Below, one piece after another: positions 1,655 through 23,276 of a stretch of DNA of 24,000 bases. The DNA lies in NCBI GenBank assembly GCA_036279295.1, contig DASUJK010000129.1, positions 40,165 through 64,164 of the forward strand, read 5' to 3'. Numbering within the stretch: the stretch's first letter is position 1; every line of letters begins with the position of its first letter. Origin of the DNA: Pseudonocardiaceae bacterium. Its GTDB lineage: Bacteria; Actinomycetota; Actinomycetes; Mycobacteriales; Pseudonocardiaceae. The translations under genes and the position numbers were made by a program. The notes beneath the pieces were generated by a model. It worked only from the letters and a program-made list of their open reading frames with translations, made no database searches and was not told where the DNA came from.

Positions 1655-3544
1655 GTGCCACCACAGGCTGGGCACATCCGCCCAGGACGCTACCTCTGGG
1701 TGTTTGCCGTAATCGTGGTCTTGTTGTACGCCTTGGTCTTTCTGACCGGCGACCACAAGCCGACCCCGAAGTTGGGCATCGACCTCAAGGGCGGGACGAC
1801 GGTCACCCTGACCGCCCGCACCCTCAACGGCCAGCCACCCACCAACCAGCAGTTGGACGAGGCGCAGCAGGACATCGAGACCCGCGTCAACGGGCTCGGC
1901 GTCGCGGGCGCGCAGGTCGTCCGCAACGGCTCCAACATCGTCATCACGGTGCCGGGCAGCCAGGGCCAGGAGGCCAAGGACCTCGGGCAGACCGCGAAGC
2001 TGGTGTTCCGGCCGGTGCTCCAGCAGGTGGCCGCCGGCAGCACGGTGCCGACCACCACGCCGAACCCGAGTGGCTCGGCCACCCCGTCCGGCGCGGTCGC
2101 CCCGACCTCCGGCGCGAACCCGAGCGGTTCGGCGACCGTGAAGCCGAGCGCCCCGGCCACCCAGCCGGCCACGCCGACCAACGAGGGCCTGCCGGCCGCC
2201 GGCAGTCACTCCGACGCCAGCCCGGTCGCCTACCACGTCCAGGTGCACCAGGCCGCCGTCGTGGCCACCACGACGGCAGCCGCACCGCCCGCCACGCCGC
2301 CCGCCACCCCGGCCGGGTCCGCGTCGACCAGCGGCGTCACGACCGTCCCCGGCGTCAACGTCAACGACTGCTGGGGGGTCACCAAGGCCCAGCAGGCCAA
2401 GGAACCGACGCTGACCCGGGAGCAGCAGTCCGGGCTGATCAACGCGTGCCGGCAGCTGCGGCAGAGCACCGATGCCACCGCGCAACAGACCGCGCTGTCC
2501 AAGCTCAACTGCGGCTCCAACTTCACCGACCCGCTGCTGGGCAACGACGACACCACCAAGCCCCTGGTCGCGTGCGACCAGCTGGGCCAGGCCAAGTACG
2601 TCCTCGGCCCGTCGTTCCTGGACGGCACGCAGATCAGTGACGCCACGTCCGGCCTGGACCCCAACGGCGCGGGCTACGTCGTCAACCTGACCTTCAAGAG
2701 CGCGGGCTCCAACACCTGGGCGAAGTACACCGCGGCCCACGTGGGCAAGCAGGCCGCGTTCGTGCTGGACACCCAGGTGGTCTCGGCGCCGACCATCCAG
2801 CAGGCGATCCTGGGCGGCAACACCCAGATCTCCGGGCAGTTCACCCAGAACGACGCGGCCAACCTGGCCAACGTGCTGAAGTACGGCTCGCTGCCGCTGG
2901 CGTTCGACGCGTCCAACGCGGAGACCGTGTCCGCGACGCTGGGCCTGGCATCACTGCAGGCCGGCCTGATCGCCGGTGGCATCGGCCTCGCGCTGGTCGT
3001 CGTCTACTGCCTGTTCTACTACCGGGCGCTCGGTGTGCTCACGGTGCTGTCGCTGGCCCTGTCCGGCGTGACCATCTACGCGCTGCTGGTGCTGCTGGGC
3101 CGCTGGATCGGCTACAGCCTGGACCTGGCCGGTGTGGCCGGCTTCATCATCGCCATCGGTATCACCGCTGACTCGTTCGTGGTGTTCTTCGAACGCCTGA
3201 AGGACGAAGTGCGGGAGGGCCGAACATTCCGGTCCGCGGTGCCCAGGGCCTGGGTCCGGGCGCGGCGCACCATCCTGGCCTCGGACGCGGTGAGCTTCCT
3301 GGCCGCGGTGGTGCTGTACGTGTTCGCCGTGCAGGACGTGCAGGGCTTCGCGTTCACACTCGGCCTGTCCACCGTGCTCGACCTGCTCATCGTGTTCCTG
3401 GTGACGCACCCGTTGGTAGCGCTGGCCTCCAGGTCCAAGTTCCTGTCCAAGCCGAACGTGTCCGGGCTGGGTGCCGTACAACGCGCCGGTGCCGCCGCGA
3501 GGGCGGCCAACAAGGCCGCCGGCCCCACCGTGAAGGAGGCCTGA
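1655..3544 (+). CDS. secD: Protein translocase subunit SecD
   Basis: 629 aa. N-terminal TM, LGIDLKGGT motif, large periplasmic domain with a Pro/Thr/Ala-rich insert. C-terminal six-TM bundle (GIGLALVVVYCLFYYR...ITADSFVVFFERLKDE). GAGGAG lies upstream of the GTG start. Confidence 0.95.
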   Translation: MPPQAGHIRPGRYLWVFAVIVVLLYALVFLTGDHKPTPKLGIDLKGGTTVTLTARTLNGQPPTNQQLDEAQQDIETRVNGLGVAGAQVVRNGSNIVITVPGSQGQEAKDLGQTAKLVFRPVLQQVAAGSTVPTTTPNPSGSATPSGAVAPTSGANPSGSATVKPSAPATQPATPTNEGLPAAGSHSDASPVAYHVQVHQAAVVATTTAAAPPATPPATPAGSASTSGVTTVPGVNVNDCWGVTKAQQAKEPTLTREQQSGLINACRQLRQSTDATAQQTALSKLNCGSNFTDPLLGNDDTTKPLVACDQLGQAKYVLGPSFLDGTQISDATSGLDPNGAGYVVNLTFKSAGSNTWAKYTAAHVGKQAAFVLDTQVVSAPTIQQAILGGNTQISGQFTQNDAANLANVLKYGSLPLAFDASNAETVSATLGLASLQAGLIAGGIGLALVVVYCLFYYRALGVLTVLSLALSGVTIYALLVLLGRWIGYSLDLAGVAGFIIAIGITADSFVVFFERLKDEVREGRTFRSAVPRAWVRARRTILASDAVSFLAAVVLYVFAVQDVQGFAFTLGLSTVLDLLIVFLVTHPLVALASRSKFLSKPNVSGLGAVQRAGAAARAANKAAGPTVKEA

Positions 3545-3545
3545 G

Positions 3546-4775
3546 ATGCCCGCCGCACAGCAGCAGGGCCTGTTCCACCGCCTGTACACCGGCACAGGTG
3601 CCTTCGACATCGTCGGCAAGCGGAAGCGCTTCTACGTCTTCTTCGGCGCGATCGTCCTCATCTGCCTGGTGTCCATCATCGTGCGGGGCTTCAGCTTCAG
3701 CATCGAGTTCGAGGGCGGCACGCAGATCCAGCTGCCGGCCAACGGTGCTCACGGTGTGATCACCACGCAGCAGGCCACCACCGCGTACACGGACGCGCTG
3801 GGCAAGGAACCGTCGTCGGTGCAGTCGGTGGGCACCGGCCGCAACGCCAGCATTCAGATCCGGTCGGAAGCGCTGAACAACGACCAGGTCAGCAAGCTGG
3901 AAGAGACGATGTTCAACCAGCTCCAGCCGCTGGACTCGACCGGCAGGCCGAGCCAGACGGCGATCAGCGACTCGGCCGTCAGCGGTTCGTGGGGCTCGCA
4001 GATCTCCCGGCAGGCGCTGATCGGCCTGATCGTGTTCCTGATCCTTGTGTCGGTCTTCCTGAGCATCTACTTCGAGCGCTGGATGGCGCTGGCCGCGCTG
4101 ATCGCGCTGGCCAACGACCTGATCGTGACGGCGGGCGTGTATTCGATCGTCGGCTTCGAGGTCAGCCCGGCGACCGTGATCGGCCTGCTCACCATCCTCG
4201 GTTTCTCGCTGTACGACGCGGTGGTGGTGTTCGACAAGGTCCGCGAGAACACCAGAGGCATCCTGAGTCTGACCAGGCGGACGTTCGCCGAGGAGGCCAA
4301 CCTCGCGCTGAACCAGACGCTGATGCGGTCGATCAACACGTCGCTGATCGCCTTGCTGCCGGTGCTGGGCCTGTTGATCGTCGGCGTCGGCCTGCTCGGT
4401 GTCGGCACGCTGACCGACCTGGCGCTGGTCCAGCTGGTCGGCATGCTGATCGGTGCGCTGTCCTCGCTGTGCCTGGCCACTCCGCTGTTGGTGGACTTCA
4501 AGATGCGGCAGGCGCCGTACATCCAGCAGGCCAGGCGCGTTCGGCAGCGTCGGGAGACGCTGGCCGCCCGCCAGGCCACCGCTGAGGCGACCGCGGTCAA
4601 CGACGAGGTGCCCTCCGACGATGACCCCGACGGCCGGCAGGACTTCGTCAACGTGGCCAGCTCGCCGGTCAACATGACCAAGCTGGGCGGGGTGCCGGCC
4701 CGGACGCCGAAGGCGGCCCCGCGCGGTCGGCCGTCCGGCAAGGGCGGTCGTCCCTCCGGCAAGCGAAAGCGCTGA
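3546..4775 (+). CDS. secF: Protein translocase subunit SecF (with basic Pro/Gly/Arg/Lys C-terminal tail)
   Basis: Starts 1 nt after the secD stop. FSIEFEGGT motif and SecF TM bundle (LTILGFSLYDAVVVFDKVREN). Confidence 0.95.
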   Translation: MPAAQQQGLFHRLYTGTGAFDIVGKRKRFYVFFGAIVLICLVSIIVRGFSFSIEFEGGTQIQLPANGAHGVITTQQATTAYTDALGKEPSSVQSVGTGRNASIQIRSEALNNDQVSKLEETMFNQLQPLDSTGRPSQTAISDSAVSGSWGSQISRQALIGLIVFLILVSVFLSIYFERWMALAALIALANDLIVTAGVYSIVGFEVSPATVIGLLTILGFSLYDAVVVFDKVRENTRGILSLTRRTFAEEANLALNQTLMRSINTSLIALLPVLGLLIVGVGLLGVGTLTDLALVQLVGMLIGALSSLCLATPLLVDFKMRQAPYIQQARRVRQRRETLAARQATAEATAVNDEVPSDDDPDGRQDFVNVASSPVNMTKLGGVPARTPKAAPRGRPSGKGGRPSGKRKR

Positions 4776-4779
4776 CCAG

Positions 4780-5313
4780 GTGGGGGTGGCACCCGATTCC
4801 GTGACCGACGCGCTGGCGCTGATCAGGGAGATCCAGGACTTTCCCGAACCGGGCGTGCTGTTCCGCGATCTCGGCCCGGTGTTCGCCGACCGGTCGGCGT
4901 TCCGCACCATGGTGGACGCCATGGCCGGCGCGCTCGACCCGGCGGCGGACGTGCTGGTCGCCGTGGAGGCCCGGGGTTTCCTGCTCGGCGCCGCGCTCGG
5001 CTACGCCGTCGGGCTCGGTGTCGTGCCGGTGCGCAAGCCGGGCAAGTCCCCGCTGGTCGACCACCGCGTGGAGTACCAGTTGGAGTACGGCTCGGCAGGC
5101 CTCGAACTGCCGGGTGGCCTGCTGGTCGCCGGGCAGCGGGTGGTGATCGTGGACGACGTGCTCGCCACCGGTGGCACGGTTCGGGCGGCCGGTCAGCTCG
5201 TCGAGGCGGCAGGCGCTACGGTGTCCGGTGTGTCCGTGGTGATCGAACTGGCCGCATTGGCCGGCCGGGCGGCGCTGCCCGGTTACCCGGTCCACACCCT
5301 GCTCACGGTGTGA
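4780..5313 (+). CDS. apt: Adenine phosphoribosyltransferase
   Basis: LIREIQDFPEPGVLFRDL N-terminal motif and PRPP-binding loop VVIVDDVLATGGT. 177 aa, GTG start 4 nt after the secF stop. Confidence 0.9.
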   Translation: MGVAPDSVTDALALIREIQDFPEPGVLFRDLGPVFADRSAFRTMVDAMAGALDPAADVLVAVEARGFLLGAALGYAVGLGVVPVRKPGKSPLVDHRVEYQLEYGSAGLELPGGLLVAGQRVVIVDDVLATGGTVRAAGQLVEAAGATVSGVSVVIELAALAGRAALPGYPVHTLLTV

Positions 5314-5353
5314 CCTCAACCGTCTCCAGCTCATCGTCTGACGAGGAATTGTC

Positions 5354-5971
5354 ATGGCCGAACCCACGCCGTCGCCCGAGCAGTCCCTTGAGCAGCGCAC
5401 CGCGGAGCTGCAACAACAGGCCGGCGACGCGATGGCCCACCTGAAGGCCCGGATCGCGGGCGTGCGGCAGGCCCAGCAGCAGGCCATGCAGGCCAACGGC
5501 GAGGCGACATCGCGCGACGGAGTGGTCCGGGTCGTGGTGGACGGCACCGGTGTCGTGACGTCGCTGACGTTGGCACCCAGTGCGTTCGACCGCAGCACGC
5601 CCGACCGCCTGGCACAGACCATCACCGCCACCATCCAGTCCGCCGCCGCACAGGCCAGGGGGCGGACGTCGGCAGCGATGGCCGCGATCCGGGGTGACGA
5701 CAAGGGCCTGCTCAGCTCGGCGGCCAAGGGCGCCGCCGGGCTCGGTGTACCGCCACTGCCGGTGCCCGAGGTGCCCAGGACCGCCGTGGACCCGACCGGC
5801 CAGCAGGACGGCTGGGCCGTCCCGCCGCCAGCACCTGTGGAACCTCCCGCGCCCGTCGTGGAACCGATGCCGGGTCATGTCGCGTCCAACCGCTCGCGTC
5901 GCACGGATGACGTGGATGACAGTGCTGACGACGGGTCCGGCGGGTGGGTGTCGGACGAAAGGCCTTGGTGA
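5354..5971 (+). CDS. YbaB/EbfC-like protein with Pro-rich acidic C-terminal extension (first gene of toxin cassette)
   Basis: The N-terminal ~110 aa show the pattern coiled-coil (QQQA...LKARIAGVRQAQQQ), then GVVRVVVDGTGVVTSLTLAPSAF, then a helix. This is the YbaB-like fold pattern recurrently found beside ESX/WXG loci in actinobacteria. GAGGAA SD lies 6 nt upstream of the ATG. Confidence 0.65.
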   Translation: MAEPTPSPEQSLEQRTAELQQQAGDAMAHLKARIAGVRQAQQQAMQANGEATSRDGVVRVVVDGTGVVTSLTLAPSAFDRSTPDRLAQTITATIQSAAAQARGRTSAAMAAIRGDDKGLLSSAAKGAAGLGVPPLPVPEVPRTAVDPTGQQDGWAVPPPAPVEPPAPVVEPMPGHVASNRSRRTDDVDDSADDGSGGWVSDERPW

Positions 5972-5977
5972 TCGATC

Positions 5978-6742
5978 GTGGGCTTGGTCCTGCCCGGTGC
6001 CCTGACATGGGTGCTGGACATCGTGGGCATCGATTGGCCGAACATCGACGAGGACCAGTTGCGCCAGGCCGCTGACGAGCTTCGCCAGCTGGCCGACGAG
6101 CTGACCGGCAACACCGGCGACGCGAAGTCCGACATCGAGCAGATGTTGCAGAACAACACGGCGGATTCGCTGGAGCTGTTCGAAGCGCTGTGGAACAAGC
6201 TGGCCGGTTCGCATCTGCCGCAGCTCGCCGACGGCATGAAGGTGGTCGGCGCCGGCCTGGACATCGCCGCCGTCGTCGTGGTCGGCATGAAGGCCGCCGC
6301 CATCGCGCAACTGGCGATCCTGGCCGCGGAGATCATCTCCGACCAGGCCGAGGCCGCGTTCACGTTCGGTGCGTCCGAGGCGTTGATCCCGGTCCAGACC
6401 ATGGCCACCCGGGAGATCATGAAGGAAGTGATCGACCAGGCGGTCAAACAGGTTGAGCAGCAGCTGCTCTCCGCCGTCGAGGGACCGATCTTCGAGGCGC
6501 TGACCAGTGCCGGCGAGGAGCTGGCCGGCCAGCTCGTCGGTGACGCGCTGGGTACCAGCAGCGGCATCGACCTGGGCAAGGTGGCGTCGGCCGGTGGTTC
6601 CGGCTTCGAGCAGGGCGTGCAGAGCGTCACGTCCGACCCGCTGGGCGCGGTCGGCCTGACGAGCGGCTCGTCGGATGAATCGTCGGACGAGGGGTTCCAG
6701 TCCAAGACCGGCGTCCTGGTGCCCGACGAGCAGGAAGTCTGA
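5978..6742 (+). CDS. WXG100-like / CpnT-N-terminal-like helper protein with a central hydrophobic segment
   Basis: N-terminus IVGIDWPNIDEDQLRQAADELRQLADEL resembles, from memory, the W-P-x-x-D/E + coiled-coil motif of the N-terminal domain of mycobacterial CpnT-type proteins. Hydrophobic stretch GLDIAAVVVVGMKAAAIAQLAILAAEII. Acidic Ser-rich tail. Starts 6 nt after the previous gene. Confidence 0.55.
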   Translation: MGLVLPGALTWVLDIVGIDWPNIDEDQLRQAADELRQLADELTGNTGDAKSDIEQMLQNNTADSLELFEALWNKLAGSHLPQLADGMKVVGAGLDIAAVVVVGMKAAAIAQLAILAAEIISDQAEAAFTFGASEALIPVQTMATREIMKEVIDQAVKQVEQQLLSAVEGPIFEALTSAGEELAGQLVGDALGTSSGIDLGKVASAGGSGFEQGVQSVTSDPLGAVGLTSGSSDESSDEGFQSKTGVLVPDEQEV

Positions 6743-6746
6743 GGCC

Positions 6747-8060
6747 ATGAGCGGCGGGGGCTTCAACATCAACCCGGACGAACTGCACCACGGTGCCGCG
6801 CAGCTGGGCACGTTCAGCGACAGCATCACCAAGACGCTCGGCAAGCTGAAGACCACCCACCAGAACCTGTCCGCGCACGCCAGCAGTGACAAGTCCGGTG
6901 TCGGGCAGGTGGTCGTCAAGGCGGCCACCAAGTCCGAAGAGGTGATGGGGAACGTCGCCGGCGAGGGCGCCAGGGTGGTGAAGGGCGCCGAGCAGCGACT
7001 GCACGCCGGGGCGACGGCGCACTCGACCAACGAGGAGACGCGCACCAAGGCGTTCCAGGACCTCAAGCCGGGCGAGAGCGGCAAGAAGACCACGCCGTCG
7101 TCCTCCGGTGGCGGTGGCCCGTCGAAGGGCGGCGGGCCCGGTGGTTCCGGGCCGGGCAAGGGTCCTGGCAAAGGTGGCGGCGGTCCCGGCAAGGGGCCGG
7201 GCAAGGGCGGCGGCGGTGGCAAGCCGCCGAAGAAGCCCAAGGCCAGCAACGAACCGCCGGAACCCGCGCTGACCCCGGGCAAGAAGCCGCCGACCGCCAA
7301 CGACACCCCGTCCAAGGTGTTCAACAACCAGCCGAAGCTGCCCAAGCCGGAGAAGTACAAGGACGACCTGCCCAAGGTCGACTCGGCCGGCGCCGTGCCA
7401 CCGAAACCGGCCCGGGGCGCCCAGGTCGAGCAGATCGACGAGAAGCGGGTGAAGCGCGGCGGCGACGGCCTGATCAAGACGGTGGACGGCAAGCCGGTCA
7501 AGCAGTACGTCGGCGAGCTGTCCAGCGGTCGGGCGCAGGCACTCAGCGCCAACGGCCCGGACGAGAAGCCGCTGGAGTCGCGCTGCTCGGCGGTGGCCAT
7601 CGACCTGAAGACCGGCCTGGTCACCACCGGCGTCAACGGCAACGGCGGCGACGTGATCCCGCCGAAGAACCTGCACCCGCTGTTGCAGCAGAACTACCAG
7701 GACCTGCGGGCCTGGCAGCACCCCGTGCAGGGCACCACGCAGACGCTGGACGGCAAGGCGCACTACTCCACACCGGCCGGCCACGCCGAGGTCAAGGCCA
7801 CCAACGAGCTGCTGTGGGCGCGGGAGGCCCAGCTCAAGCCGGGGGAGACCCTGCCGCCGTCCACGCTGGGCGAGCTGCGGTTCGATCCGAGGTGGACGGC
7901 GCAGACCGGCGCCGACGGCGCGATCGGCGGCGCGGCGCCCGCGTGTGCCAACTGCAACTCGCTGCTGGACGGCGTGCCCAGCTACACCGGCCGCTGTACG
8001 TACACTCCGCGCGACGACCGGTATGCGAATCCATCCGTTGCCCCGTATGAGGATCAATGA
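6747..8060 (+). CDS. Polymorphic toxin: helical WXG100-like N-terminal domain + G/P/K-rich linker + C-terminal YwqJ-like nucleic-acid deaminase domain
   Basis: ATG at 6747, 4 nt after the upstream stop. The track's 6675 start overlaps the previous gene and reads as Arg/Ser junk. N-terminus FNINPDELHHGAAQLGTFSDSI... is an ~100-aa helical hairpin. The deaminase zinc/catalytic motif HAE is at 7782-7790 and PACANC (PxCxxC) at 7938-7955. Confidence 0.75.
   Translation: MSGGGFNINPDELHHGAAQLGTFSDSITKTLGKLKTTHQNLSAHASSDKSGVGQVVVKAATKSEEVMGNVAGEGARVVKGAEQRLHAGATAHSTNEETRTKAFQDLKPGESGKKTTPSSSGGGGPSKGGGPGGSGPGKGPGKGGGGPGKGPGKGGGGGKPPKKPKASNEPPEPALTPGKKPPTANDTPSKVFNNQPKLPKPEKYKDDLPKVDSAGAVPPKPARGAQVEQIDEKRVKRGGDGLIKTVDGKPVKQYVGELSSGRAQALSANGPDEKPLESRCSAVAIDLKTGLVTTGVNGNGGDVIPPKNLHPLLQQNYQDLRAWQHPVQGTTQTLDGKAHYSTPAGHAEVKATNELLWAREAQLKPGETLPPSTLGELRFDPRWTAQTGADGAIGGAAPACANCNSLLDGVPSYTGRCTYTPRDDRYANPSVAPYEDQ
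7149..7214 (+). repeat. Tandem 33-nt (11-aa GPGKGPGKGGG) duplication inside the toxin linker
   Basis: Copy 1 at 7149-7181 and copy 2 at 7182-7214 encode identical peptides. They differ at 6 third-codon (synonymous) positions. Both are embedded in a wider Gly/Pro/Lys low-complexity region, 7107-7241. Confidence 0.8.
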
Positions 8061-8434
8061 ACGAGTTGCGCGTCGACATCGAGGACACCACCCTGAGCGA
8101 GGGACAGGAGGTCCTGTACCAGGGCGTGCCGCTGACCGGTGAAGTGATCCGCACCACCGCAGGCGGCGTCGTGGTCACGGCCAAGCAGTACCGCGACGGC
8201 CTGGAGGAGGGCACGCAGCGGGAGTGGTACGGCGACGGCACCCGCCAGTCCGAGTACACGGTCGTGGACACGAACGTGACCGGCGAGACGCTGGACTGGC
8301 ACCGCAACGGCCAACTGGCCCGTCGGCAGGAGTTCGACGAGTACGGTGAGCTGCGCAAACGCGAGGTGTGGGACGAGGACGGCGTGCCGCAGCCGGACGA
8401 GGCCGTGGACGACCGGGCTGACGACGCCGAGTAA
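8057..8434 (+). CDS. Putative immunity protein, MORN-variant/YwqK-like repeats with acidic tail
   Basis: The ATG overlaps the toxin stop (ATGA at 8057-8060). Repeated G-x-x-x-x-W/Y-x-x-x-G motifs ([51 protein letters not shown]) match the MORN-variant repeats of YwqK-family antitoxins. 125 aa. Confidence 0.7.
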
Positions 8435-8565
8435 CCCTCTGTAGTCGACCGACGCCGGCCGACCAGCGCACTCACCCGACCGGCTGGCGAGCGAAACGGG
8501 CCGGTGGGCGGCGTGCCGCGTGGCCACACGACGCCCGAGCTACCATTCGATATCGGGTCGCGTCC

Positions 8566-10938
8566 GTGATCCGATCACTGGGCGCCGCCGTCGGGAGACG
8601 GGTGGCGCCAGGGGTGTCGGGAGCGTGGGTGAGCCAGGACGTCGAATCTGCGGCCGCTGCCGGAGCTGAGCAGTTGGCCGCCGCGCGGCCGCCGTCGGCC
8701 ACCCGCAGGGTGCGCGCCCGGTTGGCGAGGCGCATCACGGCCCAGCGGCCGTCCTCGGTCAAGCAGGTGCTCGAACCGCTCGCCGCCGTCCACCGTGACC
8801 TGCACCCCAACGCCGATCTCGGCCTGTTGCAGCGTGCCTACGACGTGGCCGAGGAGAAGCACCGCGAGCAGCGGCGCAAGTCGGGCGATCCGTACATCAC
8901 ACACCCGCTCGCCGTCGCGACCATCCTGGCCGAACTGGGCATGGACACCACGACCCTGGTCGCCGCCCTGCTGCATGACACCGTCGAGGACACCGACTAC
9001 TCACTGGAGCGCCTGCGGGCCGACTTCGGCGAGGTCGTCGAGCACCTGGTGGACGGCGTCACCAAGCTGGACAAGGTCAAACTCGGCTCGGCGGCCGAGG
9101 CCGAGACCATCCGCAAGATGGTCATCGCGATGGCCCGTGACCCGCGCGTACTGGTCATCAAGCTGGCCGACCGGCTGCACAACATGCGCACGATGCGGTT
9201 CCTGCCGCCGGAGAAGCAGGCCCGCAAGGCCCGCGAGACACTGGAAGTACTGGCCCCGCTGGCACACCGGCTCGGCATGGCGACGGTGAAGTGGGAACTG
9301 GAGGATCTCGCGTTCGCGATCCTGCAACCCAAGAAGTACGACGAGATCGTCCGGCTGGTGGCCAACCGGGCGCCGTCGCGGGACACCTACCTGCGCACGG
9401 TCAAGGAGGAACTGGCCGGACACCTCGCCGAGGCCAGGCTGGAGGCCGAGGTCCAGGGCAGGCCCAAGCACTACTACTCGATCCACCAGAAGATGATCGT
9501 CCGCGGCCGGGACTTCGACGACATCCACGACCTCGTCGGCGTGCGGATCATGGTGGACGACGTCCGCGACTGCTACGCCGCAATGGGCGTCGTGCACGCG
9601 ATCTGGCAGCCGATGCCCGGCCGGTTCAAGGACTACATCGCGCAGCCCCGGTTCGGCGTCTACAAGTCCTTGCACACCACCGTGATCGGGCCGGACGGCA
9701 AGCCGCTCGAAGTGCAGATCCGGACCAGGGACATGCACCACACGGCCGAGTACGGCATCGCGGCGCACTGGCGGTACAAGGAAACCAAGGGTTCGCACAA
9801 CGGCAAGTCCGTCGAGATCGACGAGATGGCCTGGATGCGGCAACTCCTGGACTGGCAGCGGGAAGCGGCCGACCCGGGCGAGTTCCTCGAATCGCTGCGC
9901 TACGACCTGGCCACCCGCGAGATCTTCGTGTTCACGCCCAAGGGCGACGTGGAGACGCTGCCGGCCGGCTCGACACCGGTGGACTTCGCGTACTCGGTGC
10001 ACACCGAGATCGGCCACAAGTGCATCGGCGCCCGGGTCAACGGCAGGCTCGTCGCGCTGGAACGCAAGCTGGAGAACGGTGAAGTAGTCGAGATCTTCAC
10101 CTCGAAGGCCGACGGCGCCGGGCCGAGCCGCGACTGGCTGTCGTTCGTCGCGTCACCGCGTGCCAAGACGAAGATCAAGCAGTGGTTCGCGAAGGAGCGC
10201 CGCGAGGAGGCCATCGAGGCCGGCAAGGACACCATCAGCAAGGAGGTCCGCAGGGTCGGACTGCCCCTGCAACGGCTGGTGTCCGCCGATTCGATGTCCG
10301 CGCTGTCCCGGGAACTGCGCTACCCGGACGTGACAGCGCTGTACGCGGCCATCGGCGAAGGCCAACTGTCCGGCCGGCACGTCGTGCAGCGTCTCGTCGC
10401 CCTGCTCGGTGGCGTCGAGCACGCCGAGGACGAGCTGGCCGAGCGCTCCACACCGTCCACAGTGACCAGACGCCGCGGTTCCGGCGACGCCGGCGTGGTG
10501 GTGGTCGGCGCGTCGGACGTGTGGGTCAAACTGGCGCGCTGCTGCACCCCGGTACCCGGCGACGAGATCCTCGGCTTCGTCACCCGTGGCGGCGGGGTCA
10601 GCGTGCACCGCAAGGACTGCACCAACGCCGGCGACCTGTACGACTCGCCGGAACGGCTGGTCGAGGTGTCCTGGGCCCCGTCGGCGTCGTCGGTGTTCCT
10701 GGTCGCCATCCAGGTCGAGGCGCTGGACCGGCACCGCCTGCTGTCCGACGTGACCAAGGTGCTTGCCGATGAGAAGGTCAACATCCTGTCCGCGTCGGTG
10801 GCCACGTCCCGGGACCGGGTCGCGGTCAGCCGCTTCTCCTTCGAAATGGGCGACCCGACGCACCTGGGCCACGTGCTCAAGGCCGTGCGCAGCGTGGAAG
10901 GCGTCTACGACGTGTACCGGATGACGTCAGCCAACTAG
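8566..10938 (+). CDS. relA: Bifunctional (p)ppGpp synthetase/hydrolase RelA/SpoT (Rel)
   Basis: Near-colinear with mycobacterial Rel as I recall it. HD domain ([13 protein letters not shown]...LLHDTVEDT), synthetase domain ([12 protein letters not shown]...DLVGVRIM), TGS ([10 protein letters not shown]), CCTPVPGD zinc-finger region and C-terminal ACT. The exact start is uncertain (GTG 8566 or a later GTG). Confidence 0.95.
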
Positions 10939-11274
10939 CTTCAGGATTTCGTCCAGCGCGGCCTGACCATCGGGTGCTCGTTTCGGCAGCCGGTCAACGA
11001 GATCGGCCAGGTGGACCCCGTCGACCTCGCTGACGATCGAGGCGATCTCCGCGAACGTAGTCCGTGGCCTGGCGCCGAGCTGTACGTAGGAGCTGATGTC
11101 GCCGCCCATCTGGTACGTGACAACAGCGGCGGCGAGAAAATGTGCCCATATCTGCCCTATGTCGCCAGCCGCTCCCCGCAAATGGTTGGCCAGGTTGTGA
11201 TGGCTGAGGGCTACCTGCTGCGGATCGAACGCCACGTACGCCAGCCGCAGCGCGTCTGCCTCCAGGAAAAAGCT
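10927..11274 (-). pseudogene. Out-of-frame C-terminal continuation of the CHAT-STAND-TPR protein (open frame downstream of the A5/T5 frameshift site)
   Basis: The minus-strand frame opens after a TAG at 11275-11277. It reads SFFLEADALRLAYVAFDPQQVALSHHNLANHLRG..., a TPR-like, protein-like sequence. The annotated frame of the large ORF instead ends in Arg/Trp-rich SWRQTRCGWRTWRSIRSR*. Confidence 0.6.
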
Positions 11275-14200
11275 CTATCCTGATGCGACAGCGTGCGCTC
11301 AATGTTGGCCTGTGCGGACAAGGTCTTGCTGAGTAGGTCGATTTTGTTGTTCTGTTCGAAAACGGATCGACACCATCGCAGCAGCTCAATGGCCTCGTCC
11401 ATTCGATCCAGGCGGCACAGTGCTTCGCAGTCGTTGAAGAGAGTTGTCGCCTGTTCGACCGCGGAAGCGCCGCGGGCGCGTTGGGACGCGTTGTGTTCCG
11501 CGTTGATCTCCAGGGCCAGCTCCCATAGGCCCAGTTCTCCAGCGGAAATGGAACCGAGATTGAGGATGGGCTCGCGACTAATCCACGCGGAACCAGTTTC
11601 GTCTACGCCTTGGATATCCAGCAGTGTCGCCATCGCGATGCGGTGCTGTTCGACCGAATCCAGCACTTCTTGATGACGGCCTTGGTGCCAGAGGATCTGA
11701 AGACGTTGAGCATCGTCCCCGATCCGGGTCCACGGCCCGAGGCCAGCCCGGGCGCTGTATTCAATCTTGTCGTCCGCGAGTTGGAGGGCTTCGTCGAGGC
11801 GGCCGGCCCGACGAAGCAGGTTGATCAGGCTGGGTGCGATGATCGAAGCGGCGCGAAAATCACCCTGCGCCACAGCGAGATCCAGTAACTCACGGAATCG
11901 AGTTGTCGCATGGTCCGGGTGCAGTACAGCTAGCGCCTGAGCATGGACGCGTCCGGCCATCAGTGCGTGCTCGGTGCTGATGGTGGCATCCATGGCACTT
12001 GCAAGTAGTGGCAGAAGTGCCGATGCGGTGATTGCCGAGGCGTCATATTGGACTAGCGCGTCGGCAGCGACACTGAATTCCAACCAGCGGTGTTGGTGGA
12101 ACAGATACGGAGCCGATGATCGGGCCGAATGAAGGATCATAGGTCCAAGTTGGTCGGTCTGTTCCCGTTGCAGCGCGGCGTGAAGTACCGCCAGCCATAG
12201 GTCGCCGAGCACGGTGTCCACCGCATTGGCGAACTCGGAACGCGCGCGGTCGCGTACTGTTTCGGCGATGCCTGGATGGACGCGATAGGTACTGGCCGCT
12301 ACCAAGGCCGCGTCGAGCAATGGTGGCATCGACTTGGCCGGATCTGGTGGATCGCCCGGACGTCCTAACCGCTCCCACACCGCAGTCCAGGCGCCCTCGG
12401 CGATCCTGGCGTTGCGGTCGCTCTCCTCCAGGCAGCACAGGAACTGGAAGAACACGGCGGCGTCCGATGGCAAGCCGGCCACCGTGGCTAGGGTCCAGGT
12501 CCGCAGGACAGCCAGGTAGTTCGCATCGGTCGCCTCGGACTCGCCGTCCAGGAACGGTGCCAGCCGGGTGCCTCCGCGCTGCCACGTCTCGTCCGCCTCG
12601 GCCAACCGGGTCGCGAGCCGCTCGGGATCAGCGGCATGGCCGTCGGCCAGCTCGATCAGCTTGGGGTGGCCTTGGACCACGGTGATCGTGCGCCTGGCCA
12701 GTTCAGGGTCGCTGTCGATGAGCGCCCTGAGGTGCGGCAACTCCCGAGCGAGCAACACAGCTTCCCGCAGCGACAGAGCGTGCACCGGCTCGACCAGCAC
12801 CGAATCGGGCAGTCCAACCGGCCGACGACGCGAGGTCAGCACCAGCCGGGACAGGCCATGATGCGCCGTCATCGCGTCGATCAGCAGCGCCCACCGCTCG
12901 TCCCGCCACTCGCCGCCGTCCGTGAGCAGCGACTCGACGTTGTCCAGGACGACCAGTACTCGCTCCTGCTCCAACACCTCGGTGAACGACGGCAGCCACG
13001 CCCGCCACGCGTCGATGTCGCCGACGAGGTGCGCGAGCTTGAGCCCCGGCAGTTGCCGCTCCAACGCGAACGCGAAGTCCGACAGGGCCGTCGTGATGTC
13101 GTGGCCTTCAGGCGGTGCCGCATGCCAGGCCATCGCCGGGAACGACTCCTGGTGCGTGTACGCCAGTTCCAGCGCACACGCGGTCTTGCCGGCTCCCGCC
13201 ATGCCGTGCAACAGGATGCCGCTGCGGCCGCTGTGCGGGGCCAACGCTGTGGTCGCCCGCGTCATCGGCTCGACCCGGCCGACGAATCGCTCCGGCTGCG
13301 CGGGAAAGTCGGCCAGCTTCTGCCGTTCCGCGTCGAACACCAGCGGCGCACCCGGCGGTGGCACCAGTTTCAGGTCGCCCGCACGCGGCCCGAACAACGT
13401 TGGCGTCGCCACGGACATCGCAGGTGCGGCAGCCGTCGGCGGCTGCACGGCGGCCTGGGGCAACGACAACGCCAAGGCACGCGCGACCGACTGCCCTTTG
13501 CCCAGTACCAAGCCGTAGAACGATTCCGCCAACGCGATTGCGAAGTCGTCGACCACCGGATAGCGCATCGCCAGGACCGCGCAGTCCAATGTGCCGGCCA
13601 CCTCGGTCGCGATGGCAGGCAGTGCTCCGCTGTCAGCGTCGGTGTCGACATCGCGCACGGCCGGTGCCAGCCCGAGCAGGTGCAGCTGCTCACCGGCCGC
13701 CACCGCCGCCGACTCGCACGCGGACAACGTGACCAGCTTGATCTGGTCGGCAGCCAGGTCGAGCAGATCAACGAGATCGGTGCTGCTGATCAGGTCCAGC
13801 CGGCCAGTGTCGTCCTCCAGCACCAGCCCTGCCGGCAGGCCGTGGCCGGACAGGTGCACCACGTCCCAGCCGGCGTCCTCCAACAACGCTTCACGCAGCC
13901 GTTCCCTGGTCGCGCCGTACTGGAGCACGCGCAGCTCGATGGGCTTGTTGTTGACAGCGGCGATCTCGTGGACGAGCCGGGCCAGCGCGAACCGCTCCTT
14001 GCGCAGGTTCAGCGCTCCCGCGTCCTCGGGCAGGCTGAACACGGCCAGCATCCGCAGCCGTTCGCCGACATCGGACTTGGCGAGCGGGCGGTGTGGCTGC
14101 TGGTCGATGATGAAGCCGACGCGGTGCCCGGCCAGCGTGCGCCCGTCCACCCGGGCCAACTCCCACGGCAGACAAGCCAGCACACCGGCTTCGGCGGGCA

Positions 14201-14510
14201 CCTCGATCCGCACCGGCCGCCGATGGCGCGCCAACACCGCCGCCAGGCCGCCGAAGACGCGCTCGGTGATCCACTCGCCGAGCTGGTCGACCAGCTCGGC
14301 CTCGTGGCGCAGCCGCCGGTCGGGTGCCGCGTTGTGCCGCAGATAACCGTGCAGGTCATGGAACGCGGTGTACTGCCATTCCTGGCCGCGCAGGTCGACG
14401 ACGTGGTCACCCAGGAACGTGCCGGCGTCGGTCAGCCGCCATCGCCACTTCGTCGGACCGGCGTGGTCGAGCACCTCAAGGCGCAGTTCCACGTCACTGT
14501 GTCGCGACAT
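11211..14510 (-). CDS. NLR-like STAND protein: N-terminal CHAT (caspase-like) protease + NB-ARC/AAA P-loop NTPase + C-terminal helical/TPR sensor (apparently frameshifted near 3' end)
   Basis: CHAT dyad context VVHLSGHG (13839-13856) and LVTLSACESA (Cys codon 13716-13718). Walker A GMAGAGKT (13182-13205). Walker B VLVVLDNVE (12933-12959). Long alpha-helical repeat C-terminus. Confidence 0.8.
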   Translation of the reverse strand: MSRHSDVELRLEVLDHAGPTKWRWRLTDAGTFLGDHVVDLRGQEWQYTAFHDLHGYLRHNAAPDRRLRHEAELVDQLGEWITERVFGGLAAVLARHRRPVRIEVPAEAGVLACLPWELARVDGRTLAGHRVGFIIDQQPHRPLAKSDVGERLRMLAVFSLPEDAGALNLRKERFALARLVHEIAAVNNKPIELRVLQYGATRERLREALLEDAGWDVVHLSGHGLPAGLVLEDDTGRLDLISSTDLVDLLDLAADQIKLVTLSACESAAVAAGEQLHLLGLAPAVRDVDTDADSGALPAIATEVAGTLDCAVLAMRYPVVDDFAIALAESFYGLVLGKGQSVARALALSLPQAAVQPPTAAAPAMSVATPTLFGPRAGDLKLVPPPGAPLVFDAERQKLADFPAQPERFVGRVEPMTRATTALAPHSGRSGILLHGMAGAGKTACALELAYTHQESFPAMAWHAAPPEGHDITTALSDFAFALERQLPGLKLAHLVGDIDAWRAWLPSFTEVLEQERVLVVLDNVESLLTDGGEWRDERWALLIDAMTAHHGLSRLVLTSRRRPVGLPDSVLVEPVHALSLREAVLLARELPHLRALIDSDPELARRTITVVQGHPKLIELADGHAADPERLATRLAEADETWQRGGTRLAPFLDGESEATDANYLAVLRTWTLATVAGLPSDAAVFFQFLCCLEESDRNARIAEGAWTAVWERLGRPGDPPDPAKSMPPLLDAALVAASTYRVHPGIAETVRDRARSEFANAVDTVLGDLWLAVLHAALQREQTDQLGPMILHSARSSAPYLFHQHRWLEFSVAADALVQYDASAITASALLPLLASAMDATISTEHALMAGRVHAQALAVLHPDHATTRFRELLDLAVAQGDFRAASIIAPSLINLLRRAGRLDEALQLADDKIEYSARAGLGPWTRIGDDAQRLQILWHQGRHQEVLDSVEQHRIAMATLLDIQGVDETGSAWISREPILNLGSISAGELGLWELALEINAEHNASQRARGASAVEQATTLFNDCEALCRLDRMDEAIELLRWCRSVFEQNNKIDLLSKTLSAQANIERTLSHQDRAFSWRQTRCGWRTWRSIRSR

Positions 14511-14511
14511 G

Positions 14512-15804
14512 TCAGCACCGTATTACCGGACCGGTCACCCCGCGATAGGTCACCCCACCGTCCGACGAGAGCTGGACGATCGGGATCGCCCTGTCGAGCG
14601 GGTTGCCCGCCTTGTCGAAGCACAGGTAGCCGCTCGCGCCGTGCACCGGCCGCTCGGGACTGATCGCGGTCAGCACCTCGTCGTGCGACACGATGGCCTG
14701 ATCGTCGTCGAGTGCGGTGGCGGGCTCGGCCGGGAACATGTGGCTGAACCCGTGTGGTGCCTTGGTGAACCACGCCGTGGTGGCCGGGTCGGCCAGTGCC
14801 GGACCGCGCCACATGCCGGGGCTGGCCAGCGCCGTGAAGTACACGGTCATGTTCGCCGACGCCGACCACAGGTCGGGTTGGCCGGCGATCTGTGCCGCGT
14901 CACTGCTGGTCAACACCGTCAACGGCTGGGTCCTGGCACACGATCGGTGGCCCAGTTCCGTGAGAGTGCGGCGCAGATCCGGGCCGGTGCCGGCGAAGTA
15001 GAGGACGTTCACGTGCGCCCGGCACACGCCGTCGCCACCGCCCGCGGCACTGGCCGTCAACACCGTTGCCGCCGCCGGCACGCCGGAGTCGTACTCCGAG
15101 CCCGGGCCGACGATCTGGTAGCGGTTCCGCACTGCGGGCGCATACGCGTCGCCCAACGCGATCGCGTGCGCGTCCGCCGGATTCTCGTCCTGCATCAGCC
15201 ACATCCGTGGCCGAGCGGGCAACCGATCGGGACGGGTGTCCAGGAAGCGGATCGCGGCCGACACCTCGTCCGGATACGTCGGAGTCACTCGGACCAGCCC
15301 ATGGATCCCGGCCAGGTCACCGGTGCCGACCATCGCGATGTGCCGGCCTGCCAAGGCATGGGCCAGGTCGGCATCCCCACTGCCCAGGCCGATCACCGCC
15401 ATCGGGTGCTGTCCGTGGAGCGCGGTCACTGCCGGCTGCCACGCCCGGTCGTCGGCCAGCACGAGGCGGACCAGCGGTGAGCCGGTGGTGCTGTCGGTCG
15501 GATGATTGGCCTCGTACTGCGCCAGATATGCGCCCTCAACGGCATGCCTGGTGTCCGCCGAGCCATTCGGCACCACCAGCACCACGATGGTCACAAAGTG
15601 CTTTCCGGTGCCGGCCACCCATTTGTTCTGTTGGTGGATCAGATTCTCCACCTGCCGTAGGTTCGCGTTGAACACATGTCCGCCGTCGGTCACGTACACC
15701 GGGGCAGGCGGAATCGGTCGTAGTGCGTAGGCAACGCCCCCAGCGGCTGCCAACACGATGACAAAAAGTGGAACGATCAGTCTTCGGCGTCGCCACCAGG
15801 GCAT
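14512..15804 (-). CDS. Membrane-anchored/secreted type-I periplasmic-binding-protein-like (LivK/Peripla_BP_6-like) protein, no cognate ABC permease nearby
   Basis: ATG at 15804 preceded by GGGGGAGG with a 7-nt spacing. N-terminus MPWWRRRRLIVPLFVIVLAAAGGVAYAL (signal/anchor). Body pattern AVEGAYLAQYEAN...LVRLVLADD...AVIGLGSGD...VRVTPTYPDE typical of type-I PBPs. The TGA stop is 1 nt from the ATG of the CHAT-STAND gene. Confidence 0.65.
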   Translation of the reverse strand: MPWWRRRRLIVPLFVIVLAAAGGVAYALRPIPPAPVYVTDGGHVFNANLRQVENLIHQQNKWVAGTGKHFVTIVVLVVPNGSADTRHAVEGAYLAQYEANHPTDSTTGSPLVRLVLADDRAWQPAVTALHGQHPMAVIGLGSGDADLAHALAGRHIAMVGTGDLAGIHGLVRVTPTYPDEVSAAIRFLDTRPDRLPARPRMWLMQDENPADAHAIALGDAYAPAVRNRYQIVGPGSEYDSGVPAAATVLTASAAGGGDGVCRAHVNVLYFAGTGPDLRRTLTELGHRSCARTQPLTVLTSSDAAQIAGQPDLWSASANMTVYFTALASPGMWRGPALADPATTAWFTKAPHGFSHMFPAEPATALDDDQAIVSHDEVLTAISPERPVHGASGYLCFDKAGNPLDRAIPIVQLSSDGGVTYRGVTGPVIRC

Positions 15805-15840
15805 ACGTCGGCCTCCCCCTCGCGCACCGCAACCAGTCCC

Positions 15841-15867
15841 ACGCATTTCGACCCCCGCGAAATGCGT
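15841..15867. promoter_or_regulatory. Perfect 10-bp inverted repeat ACGCATTTCG-N7-CGAAATGCGT upstream of the PBP-like/CHAT-STAND operon
   Basis: Read directly from the sequence. Lies 37-63 nt upstream of the 15804 start and 116 nt downstream of the cyclophilin stop. It could be an operator or the terminator of the upstream gene. Confidence 0.35.
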
Positions 15868-21218: not shown

Positions 21219-23276
21219 GTGCGATGGGACGGACAGCGGGTTCAGGGGGACGGGCAGGCGCAGGGCGCCTTGCCCGGGATCAGTGGGCTGGTGCGCAGCG
21301 TGCGTACGCCCGAGTTCAACGGCCTCGTGTTCCACGAGGTGATGGCCCGATCGGTGCTGAACAAGGTGCCGGGCGCGTCGTCCATGCCGTTCGGCTGGAC
21401 GGTGAACCCGTACCGCGGCTGTTCACACGGTTGTACGTATTGCCTGGCCGGGGACACCCCGGTGCTGATGGCCGACGGCCGCACCAAGCCGATCGCCGAT
21501 CTCGTCGTCGGCGACCGGATCTACGGCACGCGGCTGACCGGCCGATATCGCCGCTACGAGGCGACGACGGTGCTGGCGCACTGGGCCACGGACAAGCCCG
21601 CCTATCGGATCAAACTGGTCGACGGCACCGAGTTGGTGACCAGTGCCGACCACCGGTTCCTGACCGAGCGGGGCTGGAAACACGTCACCGGCACCACGAC
21701 CGGTGCGGCCCGGCGCCCCCACCTGACCACCGGCAACAAGCTGATGGGCACCGGTTCGTTCGGTGCGCAACCGGTGGTGGACGCGGACTATCGGCGCGGC
21801 TACCTGTGTGGGCTGGTGCCGGGTGGCGGTGGTGCCGGCTACCGCGACCGGGTGGCCAGGTTCCGGCTGGCCGCCGCACCGGACGGCGTGGCCGATCGGG
21901 CGGCACGGTTCCTCGCCGAATTCGGTGTGGACGCCGAACACGCCGGTGTGGTGCCCGGGTTGCTGGCGTGGCCGAGCGAGCCGAACGACCACTGGCACAA
22001 GGGTTTCCTGGCCGGAGTGTTCGACGCGCGGGGCGGCCGGTCCAGTCGGGTGCTGCGGATTCGCAATGCTGATCCCGAGGTGGTGCGGGCAGTGCTCGTC
22101 GGGTTCACCAGGTTCGGTTTCGCGCACACCGTGGAGGAGGCGGCCAAGGGCGTCGGGCCGCAGGTGGTCCGGCTCAACGGTGGACTGACCGAACACCTGC
22201 GGTTCTTCCATACGGTGGACCCGGCCGACACGAGCAAACGCACCATCGACGGGCTGGCCATCAAGTCGGGCGCGGCGCTGGGTGTGGTGTCGATCGAGGC
22301 ACTGAACAAGACGATGCCGATGTACGACATCACCACCGGCACAGGTGACTTCGTCGCCAATGGTGTGGTGTCGCACAACTGTTTCGCCAGAAATTCGCAT
22401 ACGTACCTGGATCTGGACTCGGGGCACGACTTCGACACCCAGGTCGTGGTGAAGGTCAACGCGGTCGAGGTGCTGACGGCCCAGTTACGGGCCAAGAAGT
22501 GGCAGCGAGAGCACGTCGCGATGGGTACGAACACCGATCCGTACCAACGGGCCGAGGGCCGGTACGAGTTGATGCCGGGCATCATCGGCGCGCTGGCCCG
22601 GTCCGGCACGCCGATGTCGATCCTGACCAAGGGCACGGTGCTGTCCAGGGACATCCAGTTGCTGGCCGCCGCGGCCAAGGACGTGCCGGTCGGGCTGGGC
22701 GTGTCGATCGCGTTGGTCGACCGGGACATCCAGCGTGATCTCGAACCAGGCACGCCCAGCCCGCAGGCCAGGTTGGAACTGGTCCGGCGGGTGCGCGAGG
22801 CAGGGCTGCCGTGTGGCGTGTTCGTGGCACCGGTGTTGCCGATGCTGACCGACTCGGCGGACCGGTTGGACCGGCTGTTCGCCGCGATCGCCGATGCTGG
22901 CGCGACGGGCGTGACGGTGTTGCCGCTGCACCTGAGGCCGGGCGCGCGGGAGTGGTTCGCCGCGTGGTTACGCAGGGAGCATCCGGAATTGGTGGAGTCG
23001 TACCGGCAGATCTACGGGAAGGGGAGTTACGCGGATCGTGGTTACCGGAAGCTGTTGGCAGCCCGGGTCGGTCCACTGTTACGCAGGCACGGCCTGAGCA
23101 CGGGCACCGACCGGTCCACGACGGACACGGCCACCGATGGCGCCGATGGCACTGGGCCGGTGGGCGGCGGCGCGGGGGAGTCGGACCCGGACCGCGCGGT
23201 GTGGCCTGCGGGCAGCCTGCCAGCCGGAGCACCACGGTCAGCCACGGTGGACCAGGGCCAACTCAGCCTTCTGTGA
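21219..23276 (+). CDS. SplB-like (COG1533, Rv2578c-family) radical SAM protein, intein-containing precursor
   Basis: Exteins read RSVRTPEFNGLVFHEV...PYRGCSHGCTY|CFARNSHTYLDLD...GTNTDPYQRAEGRYELMPGII...SILTKG, typical of the Rv2578c-type radical SAM family. 685-aa precursor, about 372 aa after splicing. Confidence 0.9.
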   Translation: MRWDGQRVQGDGQAQGALPGISGLVRSVRTPEFNGLVFHEVMARSVLNKVPGASSMPFGWTVNPYRGCSHGCTYCLAGDTPVLMADGRTKPIADLVVGDRIYGTRLTGRYRRYEATTVLAHWATDKPAYRIKLVDGTELVTSADHRFLTERGWKHVTGTTTGAARRPHLTTGNKLMGTGSFGAQPVVDADYRRGYLCGLVPGGGGAGYRDRVARFRLAAAPDGVADRAARFLAEFGVDAEHAGVVPGLLAWPSEPNDHWHKGFLAGVFDARGGRSSRVLRIRNADPEVVRAVLVGFTRFGFAHTVEEAAKGVGPQVVRLNGGLTEHLRFFHTVDPADTSKRTIDGLAIKSGAALGVVSIEALNKTMPMYDITTGTGDFVANGVVSHNCFARNSHTYLDLDSGHDFDTQVVVKVNAVEVLTAQLRAKKWQREHVAMGTNTDPYQRAEGRYELMPGIIGALARSGTPMSILTKGTVLSRDIQLLAAAAKDVPVGLGVSIALVDRDIQRDLEPGTPSPQARLELVRRVREAGLPCGVFVAPVLPMLTDSADRLDRLFAAIADAGATGVTVLPLHLRPGAREWFAAWLRREHPELVESYRQIYGKGSYADRGYRKLLAARVGPLLRRHGLSTGTDRSTTDTATDGADGTGPVGGGAGESDPDRAVWPAGSLPAGAPRSATVDQGQLSLL
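21441..22379 (+). mobile_element. Class-1 intein (313 aa) with degenerate LAGLIDADG homing-endonuclease insert
   Basis: Block A CLAGDTPVLMADG. Block B ELVTSADHRFLT. Blocks F/G MYDITTGTGDFVANGVVSHN followed by +1 Cys. LAGLIDADG-like motifs GYLCGLVPGGGG (21798-21833) and KGFLAGVFDARGG (21999-22037). Confidence 0.88.

Follow-up and report, generated by a model that had tools for sequence, protein, structure and literature searches.

A putative YwqJ-type deaminase toxin and its YwqK-type immunity gene in a four-gene ESX-style cassette of a Pseudonocardiaceae bacterium

We analysed a 24,000-nucleotide stretch of DNA (the window) from a Pseudonocardiaceae bacterium (GenBank assembly GCA_036279295.1, contig DASUJK010000129.1, positions 40,165 to 64,164 of the forward strand). 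A preliminary description of it had noted the motifs of a deaminase active site in the C-terminal part of one predicted protein. The locus raises the question of whether this protein is a deaminase toxin and, if so, what it would deaminate, how it would be delivered and how its producer would be protected. The analysis makes us confident that the gene (6747-8060, plus strand; 437 amino acids plus a TGA stop) encodes a member of the YwqJ family working within a toxin-immunity logic. The reading that we think probable for the locus as a whole is a four-gene ESX-style cassette for an exported YwqJ-type cytidine deaminase toxin of single-stranded DNA (ssDNA), with a YwqK-type immunity protein.

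Both motifs lie inside one plus-strand open reading frame (ORF), and codon indexing of its translation returned exactly the positions given for them in the preliminary description: HAE at 7782-7790 (H346, 7782-7784; A347, 7785-7787; E348, 7788-7790) and PACANC, P398 to C403, at 7938-7955 (P398, 7938-7940; C400, 7944-7946; C403, 7953-7955). The first motif supplies a predicted zinc ligand and the predicted catalytic Glu at the start of helix 2, and the second two predicted zinc-binding Cys at the start of helix 3. Their spacing, described as about 48 residues, is approximately that: E348 and P398 have 49 residues between them, and H346 and C400 are 54 residues apart. Six-frame translation of the window yields one instance of the strict pattern (H[AE]E, 35-70 residues, PxCxxC); 200 shuffles gave an expectation of 0.005, and a chance origin was rejected on these shuffles. 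A loose HxE...CxxC pattern occurs twice (0.375 expected from shuffles) and, taken alone, is weak evidence. We judge the motif to be real because its residues are conserved across homologues. Among 26 full-length homologues, 34-84% identical, H346, A347 and E348 are invariant, as are V349, K350, N353 and E354, which follow in the pattern HAEVKA.NE, and C400, N402 and C403. In 40 diverse representatives, down to 28% identity, the His and the Glu are still invariant and both Cys are at least 90% conserved.

The longest ORF spans 6675-8060. Its start at 6675 was rejected, because every homologue begins with MSG.GF.I.P and 6747 is preceded, 9 nt away, by an AGGAAG ribosome-binding site. The ATG at 6747 (MSGGGFNINPDEL...) is the start used by all homologues.

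The C-terminal region matches the Pfam profile of YwqJ-like deaminases (PF14431; gathering cut-off 25.9 bits) at 29.2 bits with the whole protein and at 31.4-32.2 bits with the domain alone. The match spans profile positions 19-134 of 138 and residues 60-186 of a 215-residue module. Each of the 18 close relatives matches the same profile, as do 34 of the 40 distant representatives, and a 100% identical entry in NCBI nr, from a 64-kb contig, is named 'MAG TPA: YwqJ-related putative deaminase [Pseudonocardiaceae bacterium]'. A profile search was one of the checks that the preliminary description had proposed for its assignment to the YwqJ-like clade, and the assignment is borne out. The protein is thus a further member of a known, annotated family that was defined in 2011, and its name is already in NCBI; NCBIfam holds no model for it.

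Searched exhaustively with the profile, 1.84 billion cluster representatives yielded 343 relatives at E≤1e-3 and 225 at E≤1e-10. The whole 215-residue module recurs as a unit in the 343 representatives and is almost always C-terminal, in proteins of about 140 to 7595 amino acids. Such C-terminal placement across proteins of widely differing size is the hallmark of polymorphic toxin domains. The module (R223-Q437; 7413-8057, plus strand) consists of an N-terminal extension of three strands and a long helix, followed by a YwqJ-type core. The domain had earlier been delimited as 7584-8057; the motifs do fall inside these limits, while the 5′ boundary has to be moved, as the conserved module begins about 57 residues earlier, at about 7413 (R223). 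Three giant proteins of the family (P0051, 5239 amino acids; P0063, 5476; P0122, 7595) have two to four stretches of YwqJ module or carry the module far from the C-terminus (residues 1342-1570 of P0051). Giant proteins with several such stretches may be multi-toxin 'polytoxins'.

Modelled with AlphaFold2 from 36 sequences, residues 223-437 reached a mean predicted local distance difference test score (pLDDT) of 93.7 and a predicted template modelling score of 0.91. In module numbering the model begins with three short strands, a long helix (29-45) and two strands (58-64 and 69-74), followed by an insert of about 50 residues that comprises a helix (89-100) and a hairpin and carries the invariant H310-P311 and the near-invariant H339. 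The invariant His of LHPLL (7674-7676, plus strand), which opens helix 89-100, is a signature of the YwqJ clade (Iyer et al. 2011) and is invariant in our alignments A1, A2 and A4. Helix 125-139 then opens with HAE and is followed by a short helix (149-154), a strand (155-161), a 16-residue insert before C178 of the module, and helix 179-184, which opens at CANC. After this last helix the model has only isolated bridge residues and a C-terminal tail without regular strands. The predicted order, strand 1, strand 2, insert, helix with HAE, strand 3, insert, helix with CxxC, is of the deaminase type. The model also has both inserts of the YwqJ clade and the reduced elements after helix 3 that Iyer et al. 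(2011) describe.

Structure prediction with a Foldseek comparison had also been proposed as a check, and its outcome is divided: the element order is of the deaminase type in a confident model, and 18 of the top 20 Foldseek matches in the PDB are deaminases of the cytidine deaminase (CDA) superfamily, including the toxin SsdA, but all have E≥0.38 and are non-significant. The one feature of the clade description that the model does not match is the Gly of the Gx[CH]xE motif: the sequence reads P-A-G-H-A-E, so that Gly occupies -1 and A or L the expected position -2, and the -1 position before the zinc-ligand His differs among relatives (G, S, N, R or Q). The misplaced Gly is a small departure, and Iyer et al. 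(2011) themselves note that the motif varies. The invariant K350 (7794-7796), two residues after the catalytic Glu (HAEVK), fits the pattern [HD]xEx[KQ]; the same authors give this pattern for the SCP1.201 clade, with the BURPS668_1122 clade sharing it, and not for YwqJ. K350 may bear on how the substrate is handled.

The gene directly downstream (8057-8434, plus strand) encodes a protein of 125 amino acids (isoelectric point (pI) 4.2, charge -18) of the YwqK type, with MORN-type hairpin repeats. Its ATG overlaps the TGA of the toxin gene (caATGA), an arrangement that points to translational coupling of the two genes. The match of the protein to Pfam MORN_2 (E 1.1e-4) is below the cut-off, and homologues of the protein carry the JGI name 'antitoxin component YwqK of YwqJK toxin-antitoxin module'. 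Its AlphaFold2 model is all-beta (pLDDT 61.6), with high-probability, non-significant Foldseek matches to the MORN domain of SET7/9 and to single-layer beta-sheets; a sequence search of the PDB with the immunity protein gave no match. Of 79 related actinobacterial loci, about 70 have a YwqK/MORN-type homologue immediately downstream of the deaminase domain. The setting agrees with that given for the YwqJ clade by Iyer et al. (2011), in which the domain is C-terminal behind variable trafficking regions, T7SS WXG/LDxD types among them, and has an immunity gene beside it. By the JGI naming, the immunity type is the YwqK of the prototype and not SUKH3 or Imm6, the types listed in 2011 (Iyer et al.). 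The earlier reading of the protein as a toxin is supported by this pairing, by the C-terminal position of the domain in proteins of very different length, and by a cassette that diverges far faster than its flanks.

The base and nucleic acid attacked had been described as unreadable from sequence. Formally this is still so, while the accompanying term 'uncharacterised' has become less accurate, since YwqJ of B. subtilis is an ssDNA cytidine deaminase (PMC13648612, bioRxiv preprint of 30 September 2026). Delivered by a type VII secretion system (T7SS), it deaminates cytosine in ssDNA without 5′-context preference and requires its catalytic Glu for killing; activity on double-stranded DNA (dsDNA) was minimal, and none was detected on one RNA substrate, in an assay without a positive-control RNA deaminase (PMC13648612). 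YwqK neutralises YwqJ, and a co-operonic endonuclease V, YwqL, which cuts at uracil, forms a second layer of protection; the survey of ywqJKL was limited to B. subtilis genomes (PMC13648612).

Endonuclease V genes (PF04493) also lie beside the toxin-immunity pair in 8 of the 79 actinobacterial loci, at distances of 0.03-4 kb and in at least four arrangements. We estimate the chance expectation at about 0.2 of 79 loci with such a gene within 10 kb, taking one nfi per genome of about 8 Mb. In three Kutzneria loci the endonuclease V gene is on the same strand, 27-50 bp past the MORN-type gene, and in three Saccharopolyspora loci it is convergent. In two loci from metagenome-assembled genomes (MAGs), L059 of a Pseudonocardiaceae and L075 of a Mycobacteriales, toxin, immunity and endonuclease V genes are collinear, and in L075 the start of the endonuclease V gene overlaps the end of the immunity gene. 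The eight loci are L012 (endonuclease V at 12265-12930), L013, L014, L015 (14187-14819), L016 (12647-13282), L020, L059 (8938-9582) and L075 (10042-10704), and further endonuclease V genes were located in L001 (8916-9584) and L005 (8662-9333). The window itself contains no endonuclease V gene. The linkage to YwqJ/YwqK pairs appears to span phyla, from Bacillus to several actinobacterial lineages. From the position of these repair genes beside the toxin-immunity pairs of relatives we argue that the lesion made by the actinobacterial branch is a deaminated DNA base. As the substrate of this branch we somewhat favour cytosine in ssDNA.

A deaminase with the same fold and the same toxin-immunity logic might act on something else, be it dsDNA, as with DddA, RNA or tRNA, adenine in DNA, or free nucleotides. 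We consider this unlikely while leaving it an appreciable share of the probability, since several points weigh against ssDNA cytosine. The HxE and CxxC motifs do not reveal a substrate, and distant members of the YwqJ family deaminated neither ssDNA nor dsDNA in earlier screens. The PF14431 score is marginal, only just above the cut-off, and would place the toxin module on a divergent YwqJ branch; identity to the toxin domain of B. subtilis YwqJ is probably low, judging from the same score. In addition, the invariant K350 is a feature of the SCP1.201 clade, to which DddA belongs, and canonical endonuclease V prefers deoxyinosine, which would also fit deamination of adenine. Set against this, the sole YwqJ enzyme tested biochemically acts on ssDNA cytosine (PMC13648612), and the tested representatives of BaDTF1-3, three other clades of toxin deaminases, all act on cytosine in DNA. 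The SCP1.201 Pfam model is unmatched even at E up to 1; of the features of that clade the protein has HxExK (K350) only, and its strand 3 ends in FDPRW without Asn. The endonuclease V linkage, moreover, points to a lesion in DNA and not to an RNA or nucleotide target. One form of this alternative, in which the actinobacterial branch deaminates adenine in DNA and would be a natural DNA adenine deaminase toxin, is suggested by the recognition of deoxyinosine by endonuclease V, by the repeated placement of its gene right behind the immunity gene, on the same strand, in L059, L075 and the Kutzneria loci, and by the negative cytosine screens of distant members; we find it very improbable. Likelier, with the chances evenly balanced, is that triads of toxin, immunity and endonuclease V repair are a cross-phylum feature of YwqJ-type systems and not a peculiarity of B. 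subtilis.

Two further explanations would deny the protein its role as a catalytic toxin. The domain could be decayed or non-catalytic, toxic by binding or left over in a dead cassette, as might be suspected from a model without regular strands 4 and 5 after helix 3, from a window without a repair gene and from an organism known from a metagenome only. This is highly improbable in our view, because in relatives 30-87% identical the four catalytic and zinc-binding residues, together with some 20 other positions, vary little or not at all, the ORFs are intact and the immunity gene is coupled. C-terminal truncation has been described for members of the YwqJ clade that bear the active site (Iyer et al. 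2011), and killing by B. subtilis YwqJ needs the catalytic Glu (PMC13648612). The protein might otherwise be a housekeeping nucleotide or tRNA deaminase that lies beside apt and relA by chance. Its neighbours (ruvB, yajC, secDF, apt and relA) would suit such a role, and one Kutzneria homologue is near cdd and a nucleoside transporter operon. Searches gave no match to housekeeping deaminases above noise, however: the general dCMP/cytidine deaminase model (PF00383) matched three relatives weakly (E 0.012-0.15), and hhalign of the family profile against cdd (from L001) and E. coli TadA aligned the PCxxC or HAE motif only (E 0.037-0.44, probability <2%). A secretion-type N-terminus followed by a disordered linker, a variable genomic position, a patchy distribution, a paired immunity gene and fusion of the domain to giant multi-domain proteins all argue the same way, and we give the housekeeping role next to no chance. 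The reading of the protein as an exported ssDNA cytidine deaminase toxin with its own immunity protein is therefore the one that we follow below.

The N-terminal domain of the toxin (about 110 amino acids; 6747-7076, plus strand) is probably a helical hairpin of the WXG100/EsxAB type, with SG[VLFI]G at the site of the WXG turn. Pfam searches with 13 such N-terminal domains gave weak matches to WXG100 (3 of 13, best E 5.8e-4), T7SS_ESX_EspC (3 of 13, 1.8e-3), PE (2 of 13, 2.4e-3) and DUF6507 (6 of 13). Against the PDB the domain aligned with the WXG100 proteins 3gvm, 3o9o and 3zbh (E 0.056-0.58) and with ESAT-6-like 12fa_A (E 0.13), and two other family members have EspC-type N-termini. These matches are weak but concordant, and the domain is probably a type VII secretion signal. 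Delivery through a type VII (ESX) system is quite probable; no ecc genes were found within the 24-kb window. Between this domain and the module lies a basic, low-complexity linker rich in Gly, Pro, Lys and Ser (7077-7412, plus strand; pI 10.1; 72% G+P+K+S), whose length and sequence vary widely among homologues. The GPGKGPGKGGGG units (GPGKG) of the linker are encoded by a 33-bp tandem repeat (7140-7217; 79-83% matches over 2.1-2.3 copies).

Upstream of the toxin gene, and completing with it and the immunity gene a set of four co-directional, closely packed genes (5354-8434), are two more genes. The first (5354-5971, plus strand) encodes a YbaB/EbfC-like, or EspL-like, protein (PF02575, YbaB_DNA_bd, E 2.2e-13). 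A YbaB-like gene is likewise upstream of the toxin in loci L003, L006, L007, L008 and L010, and in M. abscessus YbaB/EspL-like genes occur within putative ESX-4 substrate operons (PMC13491425). The second (5978-6742, plus strand) encodes a protein of 254 amino acids (pI 4.05) with a WXG100_2 domain (PF25547, E 3.9e-15), WXG100-like at residues 9-145 and ending in a Gly/Ser-rich tail; its counterparts in L003, L006, L007 and L010 are 70-82% identical. We propose that this protein is the secretion partner of the toxin. Residues of about 86-120 in it are rich in Ala, Val and Ile and strongly hydrophobic (mean Kyte-Doolittle score up to 2.15 over 19 residues), and the stretch could be a membrane-inserting or partner-binding helix. 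A single frameshifted gene made up of the WXG100_2 ORF and the toxin ORF was considered and rejected: homologues share the MSG.GF start and stay two genes.

Taken in sequence, this presumed antibacterial system might work as follows. The WXG100-like N-terminal domain would direct export of the toxin through the type VII (ESX) system, with the upstream WXG100_2 protein as a probable partner and the YbaB/EspL-like protein as a probable helper. In the C-terminal domain, for which motif conservation, the Pfam match and the fold order are observed, zinc would be coordinated by H346, C400 and C403, and E348 would shuttle the proton. In the target cell the domain would most likely turn cytosine into uracil in ssDNA exposed during replication or transcription, a step that we infer from the activity of B. 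subtilis YwqJ and from the endonuclease V linkage in relatives. The uracil lesions would lead to lethal repair intermediates or to mutations. The producer would be protected by the coupled, highly acidic YwqK/MORN-type protein, whose gene pairs with that of the toxin and which is predicted to bind and block the toxin domain.

The cassette appears to be mobile. In three Pseudonocardiaceae MAGs it occupies the site between apt and relA (window, 5314-8565; L006, 2055-8211; L010, 1157-6470), and in L003 and L008 (L003, 4760-7661) it lies in an unrelated neighbourhood. Between L010 and the window the flanks are 83-90% identical, against 58% for the YbaB-like protein, 44% for the toxin N-terminus, 50% for the deaminase domain, 52% for the immunity protein and 79% for the WXG100_2 protein. 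A cassette that has diverged between conserved flanks is what diversifying exchange at a fixed integration site typically leaves behind. Loci of other genera join the deaminase domain to different N-terminal regions, and several Streptomyces loci have a WXG100_2 domain about 5 kb upstream of it, possibly in the same giant protein. Divergence at a fixed site, relocation and swapping of N-termini are standard behaviour of polymorphic toxins. The family seems to be mainly chromosomal, because a plasmid collection gave one partial match only.

The insertion splits a run of conserved actinobacterial housekeeping genes consisting of ruvB (35-862), yajC (950-1408), secD (1655-3544), secF (3546-4775) and apt (4780-5313) on one side and relA (8566-10938) on the other, after which come a CHAT/NB-ARC gene on the minus strand, a cyclophilin gene, hisS and a radical SAM gene. 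A scan of 5200-8700 for promoters and terminators found no sites, as expected at 70% GC. The CHAT gene (11211-14510, minus strand) encodes a protein of 1099 amino acids that combines a CHAT protease domain at the N-terminus with an AAA_16/NB-ARC-type NTPase region. Co-directional with it is an ORF of 444 amino acids (14512-15846, minus strand) without a Pfam match, and both lie between relA and the cyclophilin and hisS genes. The two have the look of a second inserted island, which may be a STAND/CHAT defence or signalling gene. The radical SAM ORF (21219-23276, plus strand; 685 amino acids) matches an intein splicing domain at residues 83-153 (E 1.1e-6; 29 bits, cut-off 35.8) and has its radical SAM core at residues 419-546, after the intein-like stretch; it may encode an intein-containing radical SAM enzyme.

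As the identification of a deaminase the finding is routine, given that the family was defined in 2011, the protein had been named by NCBI and the chemistry of the prototype was published in 2026. What the locus documents in Pseudonocardiaceae is a YwqJ deaminase in a compact architecture of the ESX delivery type, made up of a YbaB-like protein, a WXG100_2 protein, a short WXG-like toxin and YwqK-like immunity. The endonuclease V linkage from Bacillus to actinobacteria supports a DNA target and a dedicated repair layer in the toxin loci. Small, divergent YwqJ-type domains without 5′-context preference are possible raw material for base editors, and there is a small chance that this branch has a different base or strand specificity. 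Culturable relatives that carry the triad with endonuclease V include Kutzneria viridogrisea DSM 43850 and Saccharopolyspora rhizosphaerae.

The locus can be compared with several known systems. DddA of Burkholderia cenocepacia (SCP1.201, BaDTF1) and SsdA of Pseudomonas syringae (DYW-like, BaDTF2) are interbacterial deaminase toxins with a C-terminal domain of the CDA fold and a cognate immunity protein, an arrangement that the present protein probably shares, and the SsdA structures 7jtu and 9c63 are among its closest structural neighbours, albeit at weak similarity (TM 0.29-0.40, E about 1). They differ in belonging to other Pfam families, which have no match here, and in type VI delivery; DddA also acts on dsDNA, with a 5′-TC preference. 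The CpnT/TNT system of M. tuberculosis, with EsxE-EsxF and IFT, resembles the cassette as an ESX-dependent operon with WXG100-type partners upstream. CpnT has a WXG100-like N-terminal region, a C-terminal toxic domain and a downstream immunity gene, but its toxin domain is an NAD+ glycohydrolase and not a deaminase. The WXG100_2 domain of our locus is a separate protein, unlike the arrangement within the CpnT polypeptide. Alone among entries of solved structure, the C-terminal YwqJ-like deaminase domain of YenC2, the C subunit of the Tc toxin of Yersinia entomophaga (PDB 9c4k, chain Q), aligns in sequence around the active site (HAEVQALN ... PACYNC, E 0.86). Sequence-profile searches of the PDB with the full-length and C-terminal-domain alignments returned no other deaminase. 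YenC2 has Gln at the position of K350 and is delivered by the Tc injectosome into insect cells; YwqJ is mentioned in papers on Tc toxins (PMC7861908, PMC10847046).

The fullest comparison is with YwqJ of B. subtilis, an LXG toxin of the type VIIb system (PMC13648612). Its N-terminus is LXG plus PT-TG, whereas the one described here is short and WXG100-like; its accessory genes are YwqH and YwqI instead of YbaB-like and WXG100_2 genes; and it comes from a firmicute with a T7SSb, as opposed to an actinobacterium with a presumed ESX-type T7SS and a window without endonuclease V. In several respects the two agree. Both match PF14431, with an active site of HxE and a Cys pair, and helices 29-45, 89-100 and 149-154 of our model correspond to an extended N-terminal helix and two added central ones in that of B. 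subtilis. In each, a C-terminal toxin domain stands behind a helical type VII-type domain, with genes for small helical proteins upstream and a YwqK-named MORN-type immunity gene directly downstream, and in some actinobacterial relatives, as in B. subtilis, an endonuclease V gene adjoins the pair.

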